Below are positions 51,884-54,802 of a DNA stretch of 64,000 nucleotides, piece by piece. Within the stretch, counting starts at the first letter, position 1, and every line of letters begins with the position of its first letter. The notes under the pieces are model-generated. The model was not told the origin of the DNA. It was given only the letters and a program-made list of their open reading frames with translations, and ran no database searches. A program made the translations under genes and the position numbers. The stretch comes from Somniosus microcephalus (taxonomy: Eukaryota): contig CM126218.1 of assembly GCA_052327205.1 (NCBI GenBank), positions 79,484,001-79,548,000 of the forward strand, given 5' to 3'.

Positions 51884-54802
51884 ATGCCTAAGCGTGGTAA
51901 CATCAACGATTTTAATTCCGAGGTAGAAGACTGGGCCACGTATGTGGAACGCATTGAGATCTATTGTGAGGCCAATAAAATAGAAGAAGATGACAAAGCT
52001 ATAACCTTGCTAAACTCGATGGGCGCGAAGACATATGGGCTCTTGAAGCATCTACTAGCACCAGCTAAACAGGCGGATCAGACTTTCGAGGATATTGTGA
52101 CTGTTCTGAAGGACCACTTGAACCCCACACCGTTGATGTTGGCAGAACGATTCAAATTCTATGCGAGAACGCAAAGGAAAGACGAAAGCAACGCAGAATA
52201 CTTGGTCGAACTGCGTAGACTAGCGAAACACTGCCAGTTTGGAGGGAATCTGACAGAGGCATTGCGAGACAAGTTCGTGTGCGGGTTGTCAAAGGAAGGA
52301 ACGCAAAAGCGACTACTCGAAGAGAACGACCTTACACTTGACAGGGCTGTCCTTATTGCAGCATCGCACGAAGCCGCAGTGAAGGGAACTGCGGAAATGC
52401 AGCTAAAGGCAGCGGCACTCAGTGTGGATCAAATTACCTCGAGTACAACAAAATGCTATCGTTGTGGGAAGACAACACACGACCAGAACCAATGCTGGTT
52501 TAAGAGCCAGGAATGTAGGAAATGTGGCAAACTGGGTCACATAGCTAAGGTATGCCGGTCAGGGAAGAAGACCAACAACCAAAGGAAGCCATCACAGGAA
52601 AAGTACAACAAGGTACACAAGGTGGCTGAGAAGAGTTCAGACGAACAGAATTCGGACTCAGACCCAAACGGCCAGGAGCTGGGCAGTCTGAGAATTCACA
52701 ATGTGAGTAAGGAAGCTGACCTACAAACTATCTGGGTCATGCTAAAAATAGCTGGAGTCCAAGTGAAAATGGAGTTGGACACTGGATCAGCTCTATCAGT
52801 CATAAATCGAAGGGATTACCACCGGCTATTCTCACATATACCCTTAAGAGATACCAAGTTCGTATTGCAGACATACACGGGGCATAAAGTATATCCCATG
52901 GGGAAGATAAAAGTCAAGGTGAGAGATGGGGGTAAAGAACACCCAAGAATGAACTTATACGTACTACCTGAGGGAGGACCACCACTTCTGGGACGGGAGT
53001 GGATCAAGAAAATAGACATGGAATGGCACTATCTAAAAGCCATAACGAGTGAGGACTCGGTGCAGACAATCAGCTCAGATTCTGAAACGGATGACGATAA
53101 GACCAACCCAAATATGAAAGACAAGGCTAAAATGGACTTGTCGACTAAGGTTGGAAGAACGAAGGCATGCATAAAGGCTTATGCTCCAGAGAAGAACAAA
53201 GTTTCAGAACAGAACTCCACCGAACAACGACAACATAGTTTGACAGAGAATTCTGAGTCTGTTCAGTTTACGGACATATCCATGACTGACGAACACCGAG
53301 CTCGGACTCAACTTTATTTCAAATTACGACAGCAAGTAGAACAAGTGAGTTACCGTCTCGAACAAGAGATGAAAACAATGAAAAAGTTCTATGACACCGA
53401 ATGGGAGAATCTGGAAAGACAACAGAAGCAGCTAGCTCAAGCAGAGAGCGACCATAGAGCCATTGTGACCAATTACCGATCACATCTCCCTTATGCTGTT
53501 CAGGAGGTAGAATATTTGCAGGAAGGAGCAAATGAAGAGGAATCTTCAGGAAGCCAGGATTTTATTCCCGTTCTTCTCTACGACTCCTTACAAGCAGAGT
53601 TTGAGAAGTTGAAGGAACAGTATGAACAGGCCCAGGCTACAATCCTGGAGGGGATTAACTCGGCAACCTCCGAAAAGCTAGTTTCAGTAGAAGCATATGA
53701 GCAACTAAAGGTTGAACATGAGCAAGAAGTCCAAAGGCTGCAGGAAATTCTTGATGAGCTCAAGGCCAAGACAGACTCATCGGTAGAAGTTCCATCCATA
53801 GATGAGAAATTAGAGGTGAAAGACATGGCAGAACATGAAAGACAAGATGTCCAAGAACTCATAAAAATATTGAAGGAAACCCAAGACAAATATGAGGCGG
53901 CAATGACCGAGGTTCAACAACTTGAAGAACAGATTCAACTGGGAATCCTTTCAGTGGAAGAAAAGGAAACTGTAAGAAACACAGAGGCTGTAAGAATGGC
54001 CCCTGAACATGAGCTAGAGAGCATCAAGGCGCAACTTCTCCGAGCGCTGGAAGCCAAAGTACAAGAGGAAAAGAAGGTGAAAGCATTGGAGGAAAAGGTG
54101 GATGAAATGGAGAAGACTCTGATCCACAGTGTTCCCGTGGAAGAGTTAACGGTCAGCCAACTCCTTCATATGCTGAGGGACAAGACTCTGCAATGGGAAC
54201 AATCTGAACACGAGCTTCAATCTTCAAAGGGAAGGAGTTCGGAGCTCTCAAAAGTTATGGAAATAGCTGAGGTTGCAACACAGATTTTACTGGGATGCCA
54301 AAAGTACGCTGAATCACGTCTATGTGAACAACAGAATGTTGAAACAGCTGCTCCAGTAGAAGGATTGAATAGCCCGATCAATCAATCCCCAATGGAAGGG
54401 GAAGTGTTGAAATCACAAATGAGGTCATTAGTGAAGGATTTGCAGGAAACCCAGGAAGAGCGGGATGAATATGAACGCATGAAAAAGTCTCTTCAGGAAA
54501 GATGTCTAGGGAGGGAACAACAGTCGGCTAACGTCCAGTTGGGTAAGGAAGAAGTAGCAGGCCCTCTCGCTAGACTAGTTCAGGACGACACCGAATATTA
54601 CCATGACCTGTTGAGTGACACGGAATATTACGAGGACTTGGCCTGCCCAGCTTGTGATGAAAACTCCCAAAGTGCAGAAATCAGGATGAAGCACTTAAAG
54701 TCTAAGGAACATAGGGAGATGGTGGCGCTACAGCTGGCAGCTGATAAGGGAGCCCCGAGAGTCTCCAAGAAGCAGAAAAGAAAAAGACAAAGCAGAAGGT
54801 GA
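51884..54802 (+). CDS. Chimeric retrotransposon polyprotein: Gag (two CCHC knuckles) + aspartic protease + captured host coiled-coil/zinc-finger mosaic
   Basis: Uninterrupted 972-aa ORF. Mag-type Gag N-terminus (EDWATYVER...AERFKFYARTQ). Knuckles CYRCGKTTHDQNQC and CRKCGKLGHIAKVC (52454-52555). Protease LDTGSA (DTG at 52778-52786) and LLGREW. Then an E/Q/K-rich region resembling STK10, ANKRD24 and DNAJC21. Confidence 0.92.
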   Translation: MPKRGNINDFNSEVEDWATYVERIEIYCEANKIEEDDKAITLLNSMGAKTYGLLKHLLAPAKQADQTFEDIVTVLKDHLNPTPLMLAERFKFYARTQRKDESNAEYLVELRRLAKHCQFGGNLTEALRDKFVCGLSKEGTQKRLLEENDLTLDRAVLIAASHEAAVKGTAEMQLKAAALSVDQITSSTTKCYRCGKTTHDQNQCWFKSQECRKCGKLGHIAKVCRSGKKTNNQRKPSQEKYNKVHKVAEKSSDEQNSDSDPNGQELGSLRIHNVSKEADLQTIWVMLKIAGVQVKMELDTGSALSVINRRDYHRLFSHIPLRDTKFVLQTYTGHKVYPMGKIKVKVRDGGKEHPRMNLYVLPEGGPPLLGREWIKKIDMEWHYLKAITSEDSVQTISSDSETDDDKTNPNMKDKAKMDLSTKVGRTKACIKAYAPEKNKVSEQNSTEQRQHSLTENSESVQFTDISMTDEHRARTQLYFKLRQQVEQVSYRLEQEMKTMKKFYDTEWENLERQQKQLAQAESDHRAIVTNYRSHLPYAVQEVEYLQEGANEEESSGSQDFIPVLLYDSLQAEFEKLKEQYEQAQATILEGINSATSEKLVSVEAYEQLKVEHEQEVQRLQEILDELKAKTDSSVEVPSIDEKLEVKDMAEHERQDVQELIKILKETQDKYEAAMTEVQQLEEQIQLGILSVEEKETVRNTEAVRMAPEHELESIKAQLLRALEAKVQEEKKVKALEEKVDEMEKTLIHSVPVEELTVSQLLHMLRDKTLQWEQSEHELQSSKGRSSELSKVMEIAEVATQILLGCQKYAESRLCEQQNVETAAPVEGLNSPINQSPMEGEVLKSQMRSLVKDLQETQEERDEYERMKKSLQERCLGREQQSANVQLGKEEVAGPLARLVQDDTEYYHDLLSDTEYYEDLACPACDENSQSAEIRMKHLKSKEHREMVALQLAADKGAPRVSKKQKRKRQSRR

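Follow-up and report, generated by a model that had tools for sequence, protein, structure and literature searches.

The window analysed here is a 64,000-nt stretch of Somniosus microcephalus DNA, and it contains a 5.56-kb non-autonomous Gypsy-type LTR element in which the ANKRD24-like pieces reported by the first-pass annotation reside. Unless stated otherwise, the features below lie on the + strand. The element is flanked by a 5-bp target-site duplication, unstranded and read from the sequence (50570..50574 on the left, 56136-56140 on the right). Its 5' LTR (50575..50828) is 254 nt long with TG...CA ends and pairs with the 3' LTR (55882..56135), to which it is identical at 253 of 254 positions. 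A primer-binding site, presumably for tRNA-Ser, is located at 50830..50839, and the same motif stands behind the 5' LTR in sister copies; a polypurine tract was read from the sequence at 55869..55880. Rfam and tRNA scans gave no match.

The interior is dominated by a single frame of 972 codons (51884..54802), in which Gag-protease is fused to host cargo. Gag and the aspartyl protease take up 51884..53046, with zinc knuckles at residues 190-225 and the protease at residues 285-379. Pfam placed PF13975 and PF13650 above the cut-off and PF00098 and PF03732 as weak matches, while no reverse transcriptase (RT), RNase H or integrase was detected in the 972-codon frame. The element thus agrees with Ty3/Gypsy elements in its LTRs, target-site duplication, primer-binding site, polypurine tract, Gag knuckles and protease, and has autonomous kin in the order protease-RT-RNase H-integrase, but it carries host cargo in place of pol.

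The cargo derives from four host genes. STK10 pieces A and B (53047..53433) correspond to about residues 400-483 and 621-668 of shark STK10 (P0056), and frame residues 385-525 match STK10. They are followed by the ANKRD24 block and by a spliced, collinear OPTN piece (54140..54555, 3' end approximate). Next comes a DNAJC21-like C2H2 zinc-finger piece (54556..54790, limits approximate), which was named on a better-preserved sister copy, where the best matches are proteins named DNAJC21, and was then linked to the window. A remnant of STK10 piece C (54790..55018) is upstream STK10 sequence placed last and lies mostly past the stop codon.

Several minor features accompany these pieces. At 54280-54330 the OPTN piece apparently leaves the frame and returns on either side of a short stretch that is deleted in comparison with sister copies, and the long frame stays open. 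The host OPTN gene (C17:85871904-85901297) is on the same contig as the window, about 6.3 Mb away, and a DNAJC21-like gene lies on C1 near 2.65-2.67 Mb. For the C2H2 piece, a word-index search gave no match, and the atlas and PDB were uninformative; a PF21884 lead pointed to another gene, which we take to be DNAJC2-like, with no DNA match. An unstranded, MITE-like insertion of 687 nt (55147..55833) is not present in copy L102; it is GC-rich, its inverted ends measure 16 nt, a 3-bp duplication is apparent, and a 73% relative lies in an ANKRD24 intron. The 5' leader and the region before the 3' end of the element contain a 108-nt tandem pair and 28-nt repeats (51385-51597 and 55044-55125).

The ANKRD24 block and its junction

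Both ANKRD24-like peptides that had been pointed out in the window are present, in the one frame 51884-54802, and the block placed at 53429..54145 in fact extends over 53427-54146. The best protein relatives of frame residues 480-800 are shark ankycorbin or ANKRD24-like proteins (61-81% identity), followed by optineurin, and the bony-vertebrate matches are named ANKRD24. The first piece had been assigned to the extreme C-terminus. It is indeed from the C-terminal side (residues 1054-1080 of P0002, the shark ANKRD24 or "ankycorbin"), but it represents the penultimate coding exon. The second piece is mid-protein, as proposed (about residues 492-705), so that the downstream part does precede the upstream one.

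The host ANKRD24 gene lies on the + strand of C13. Fourteen exons were mapped (the 5' exons fall outside the mapping) and form one open frame; 13 of them are flanked by AG/GT, and the last ends at the stop. On this gene the block is made of three parts. First, the last 11 nt of a 165-nt exon (53427..53437), whose first 7 nt are common to the STK10 side. Second, the whole 66-nt penultimate coding exon (53438..53503, matching C13:62873348-62873413 at 64 of 66 positions). Third, the first 643 nt of a 1,512-nt exon (53504..54146), which begins at C13:62861849, aligns at 97.4% over 648 nt, and shares its last 7 nt with OPTN. The 165-nt exon is joined to the 66-nt exon as in normal splicing, and therefore the template was a spliced RNA. 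At 53503..53504, the 3' end of the 66-nt exon (GT comes next in the gene) is joined to the start (preceded by AG) of an exon two exons and 11.5 kb upstream, with 0 bases gained or lost. This is the arrangement that the first-pass annotation had named as support for capture of a circular RNA. Mapping on the host gene also rules out its two opposing readings: the pieces are not collinear, and they come from one gene and not from different paralogues, which match a neighbouring part at 30-33% protein identity.

Judged from the sequence, 53503|53504 is an exact back-splice-type junction, as would be expected of an in-frame 1,743-nt circle of three exons (1,512+165+66 nt). The join is identical in 31 of 31 copies (the 30 top-scoring ones and one intronic copy, a sample biased to young copies). 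All the ANKRD24 sequence of the element falls inside the three circle exons, of which only 720 of 1,743 nt were copied, and there is no poly(A) tail. Inverted repeat pairs in introns promote back-splicing, and the introns flanking the inferred circle carry such a pair (453 nt, 80%), about 0.9 and 1.2 kb from the splice sites. It ranks first of 78 intron pairs within 2 kb of splice sites (408 versus 142 bits; 7 pairs show any match). An extant genomic duplication of the circle exons is ruled out in the assembly (GCA_052327205.1), where the 165-nt exon with its flanks has 1 match and the large exon, in its host-only part, maps to one locus.

The STK10 capture and the probable order of the cargo

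Sister elements with STK10 as the only cargo were found at 5 of 33 loci in one set, with two more in another (L085, L089-L092, L111 and L112), and their STK10 cargo is permuted. It runs from residues 387-483 and 621-709 to residues 291-388 of P0056 and then to an integrase-tail remnant, so the founding capture appears to carry the same permuted signature as ANKRD24. The junction joins residue 709 to residue 291. The donor side is an exon end, because residue 709 is the insertion point of the 31-residue cassette that separates isoform X1 from isoform X2 (P0060 and P0056). The putative acceptor, residue 291, corresponds to an exon start in human STK10. From the flanking residues, the two sides of this junction would share at most 2 nt.

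Moreover, entry into and exit from the STK10 cargo overlap in the same 11 nt, alike at 10 of 11 positions, which appears to be the trace of a 1,257-nt circle copied through a single complete turn. The turn may have ended because RNase H had removed the template behind and forced the RT off, or simply because the RT was back at its departure point. The STK10-only copies are without residues about 484-620, so that a full turn presupposes an additional deletion.

In relatives that lack ANKRD24, STK10 is joined directly to OPTN, and thus ANKRD24 came as one block, replacing in a single step what had lain between its two microhomologies. The OPTN cargo of sister copies consists of six host exons, spliced and collinear. 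Captures probably took place in the order STK10, OPTN, DNAJC21, ANKRD24, as suggested by the nesting of the subfamilies and by their Gag-PR identity to the window (84%, 84-85%, 88-89% and 96-99%, respectively). A Gag-PR tree (28 of 29 rows kept; L097 left out for its short alignment) has no stable root and leaves this order unproven.

Switch points

Five ordinary switch points could be compared: entry and exit of ANKRD24, entry of OPTN and its two exits, with the STK10 sides taken from element copies. All five have exact microhomology (7, 7, 9, 8 and 7 nt), and all five miss the exon ends on the mapped host side. The cargo is spliced, partial and in sense orientation (ANKRD24 and OPTN, mapped on host exons), as in LTR-mediated retrocopies. 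L053 has an independent OPTN exit point, where a longer OPTN piece passes into STK10 cargo through a match of 7 nt, 4 nt short of an exon end. The first-pass annotation had offered template switching and circular-RNA capture as two options, yet they are not exclusive here: the 7-nt microhomologies stand outside the block and the back-splice-type junction inside it.

Proposed mechanism and alternatives

We consider it probable that host circRNAs were copied by template switching of an LTR reverse transcriptase, and the best reading is that this happened twice in one lineage, for ANKRD24 and for STK10. The ANKRD24 exons of 1,512, 165 and 66 nt would have been back-spliced into a host circRNA, which might then be co-packaged with RNA of a non-autonomous Gypsy-type element. 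While the minus strand was being made, an RT supplied in trans would quit the element RNA at the 7-nt match in the OPTN cargo, copy 720 nt of the circle backwards over the back-splice junction and then the following exon junction, and rejoin the element RNA where 7 nt match in the STK10 cargo. The reading frame would remain open, and the ANKRD24-bearing product would be amplified. An earlier round of the same process, one full turn on an STK10 circle, could have founded the lineage; OPTN would later have overwritten the STK10 junction, and DNAJC21 been added. Inferred parts of this scheme are the circularity of the templates, the co-packaging step, a pol acting in trans, the chronology and the STK10 acceptor. 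At least two of the four captured genes would then trace to circRNAs, a capture being recognisable only if it spans the junction. More tentatively, the lineage may take up host circRNAs as a regular template class, and its thousands of copies may form a fossil record of germline circRNAs; the coiled-coil and zinc-finger cargo may be translated with Gag-protease and be under selection, for example as a Gag spacer or as a decoy of host proteins.

The alternative that survives best, though we regard it as unlikely, is a linear RNA with repeated exons, arising from trans-splicing of ANKRD24 or from a tandem-duplicated allele since lost. Such an RNA gives the identical exon-exact junction. The ANKRD24 block covers 720 of 1,743 nt and so by itself does not show circularity, and the intronic inverted repeats could conceivably pair between molecules too. 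However, the 165-nt exon with its flanks is single-copy, host-only sequence of the large exon is confined to one locus, and repeated exons leave unexplained why entry and exit coincide in 11 nt of a 1,257-nt unit in STK10.

There is only a small chance that a spliced circle was turned into a small DNA circle and recombined at a short match into a pol-less element. Single-crossover integration likewise duplicates a short match, as seen at STK10, but the ANKRD24 block is part of a circle that replaces element sequence between two different microhomologies, which is copy-choice, and the empty parent that this route calls for is absent among the loci examined.

It is scarcely probable that no circle was involved and that the RT jumped back along a linear mRNA or from one mRNA to another. 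Microhomology had been offered as the sign of template switching, and 4 nt of it are present at 53503|53504. Exon ends often share such short matches, the lineage switches templates often, and 3 of the 5 ordinary switch points are within about 11 nt of an exon boundary. With the 4-nt match present, such a switch is improbable, yet conceivable. In a null model on the 14 mapped exons, in-frame backward jumps were counted by their microhomology: among those with 4 nt or more, 9 of 7,040 set an exon end on an exon start, and among those with 7 nt or more, 0 of 218 did so. Because 3 of 5 switch points lie so close, switching may favour the vicinity of boundaries, and this uniform null may be too generous. 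Furthermore, the match is shorter than at all 5 other switch points, two extra switches are needed, and the flanking inverted repeat (rank 1 of 78) is not predicted; the STK10 junction, sharing perhaps 2 nt at most, would offer still less to such a jump. An assembly artefact or chance coiled-coil similarity, which has nothing in its favour except the low complexity of coiled coils, is refuted by 97% DNA identity to host exons and by 1,318 exact junction copies against 2 of the reversed control.

Comparison with known systems

In retroviral oncogene transduction, Gag is likewise fused to host sequence. To our knowledge, there is no back-splice junction in such cases or in the maize element Bs1. 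Bs1 (as cited in PMC5131818) shares with the present element a multi-gene cargo in an RT-less element. Two phenomena are joined here: LTR-mediated retroposition and circRNA-derived pseudogenes. For the former, Tan et al. 2016 (PMC5131818) reported microsimilarity with a median of 6 bp at switch points, compared with 7-9 nt here. In both cases internal ORFs are replaced by partial sense mRNA pieces, several parent genes are involved, and further non-autonomous rounds follow. In contrast, two cargo blocks are permuted here at splice boundaries and the fusion frame is open, and the words "circular" and "Rfwd2" are absent from the main text of that paper.

For the latter, Dong et al. 2016 (PMC4897178) described 33 high-confidence copies by a mechanism that "remains mysterious", and PMC5408686 noted that LTR flanks "may suggest" LTR-mediated retrotransposition of circRNA. 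Those pseudogenes and the ANKRD24 block have in common a non-colinear exon-exon junction, circle-resident exons only, no poly(A) and an LTR context (the flanks of circRFWD2 copies are LTR-enriched); the supplements of PMC4897178 may already describe the LTR structure around these copies. They differ in that the circle piece here is within an element with both LTRs, has microhomologies at its switch points and is in frame with Gag-protease, and that there are 1,318 copies (plus 882 of STK10) from two captures in one lineage. On the other hand, the published pseudogenes derive from circRNAs seen in RNA-seq, whereas the parent circRNA here is deduced from DNA. A literature search that reached few subscription papers, and so does not establish absence from print, found no paper on the element, on "circSTK10" or "circANKRD24" (0 matches each) or on a circRNA copied by LTR template switching. 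The STK10 passages of PMC8633312 and PMC9284653 (retracted) were irrelevant to the element.

The whole anatomy is thus available in one place, with both LTRs, the switch microhomologies, an exon-exact junction, the parent-intron inverted repeat and a putative ancestral one-turn signature, and the proposition that an LTR reverse transcriptase copies circRNA by template switching becomes directly testable. It hints at a path by which circular RNAs are written back into genomes and, where an open reading frame receives them, at exon shuffling via circRNA. More practically, over 1,300 copies, transcribed in related RNA runs, will cause spurious circRNA calls and mimic host-gene expression.

Copies, relatives, transcription and selection

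A protein search of the shark's own genome gave 14,909 first-look candidates, with at least 150 copies at 98-100% identity among the matches listed. The ANKRD24 junction 15-mer occurs exactly 1,318 times in the genome (reversed control 2), the entry-junction 15-mer 1,885 times (control 0) and the STK10 junction 18-mer 882 times (control 0). LTR pairs were found in 18 of 21 stretches, the others being one stretch without and two with a flanking repeat instead. These copy counts and LTR pairs show further retroposition as a non-autonomous element. In 8 ANKRD24-type pairs the LTRs are 97.0-99.6% identical, and the family is therefore young.

The element belongs, presumably, to the Mag-like clade. 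RT, RNase H and integrase, arranged as in Gypsy elements, are present in a relative whose Gag-PR is 73% identical at the DNA level; this relative or its kin may supply pol in trans. A related element, in an ANKRD24 intron (L037, C13:62772700-62777710), has RT, RNase H and integrase domains and a frame interrupted within RT. An antisense copy of the family itself lies within ANKRD24, in the intron that separates the 165-nt from the 66-nt exon (C13:62867069-62871962, L046/L047; LTRs alike at 251 of 255), probably by chance. Being antisense, 95.6% alike and already with the junction inside, it is not the source of the block. The divergent relative L049 (C13:62890200-62892950), 72% alike in Gag-PR, carries STK10-OPTN-DNAJC21 cargo with a shorter OPTN piece, which suggests cargo moving between backbones.

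Four RNA runs were compared over L046:1200-7000; X14 and X15 share the species label of the best match, which may not be this species. In these two, the captured part of the large exon has a mean depth of about 600 and 150-200 per direction, respectively, and host-only exon sequence is at or near zero, so that they have no power for the circle. X14 coverage is about 20:1 one-directional, which would be the sense direction for a library of the common type. Element-type copies are thus transcribed in X14 and X15. Contig run X1, with another organism label, shows normal splicing and one backward joint (L046:6664 to 3022), which leads from downstream of the 165-nt exon to a point midway in the large exon; it is not 53503|53504 and may be an artefact or another circle.

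By simple counting, dN/dS is 0.16-0.18 for Gag-PR and about 0.5 for cargo shared between subfamilies. For the ANKRD24 block against the host it is 0.30, with 9 silent and 10 replacement changes (binomial p 0.012). Values below 1 are a weak hint that the cargo is selected for function, because transition bias and host-side constraint also lower them, and it is equally plausible that selection acts just to keep the frame open.
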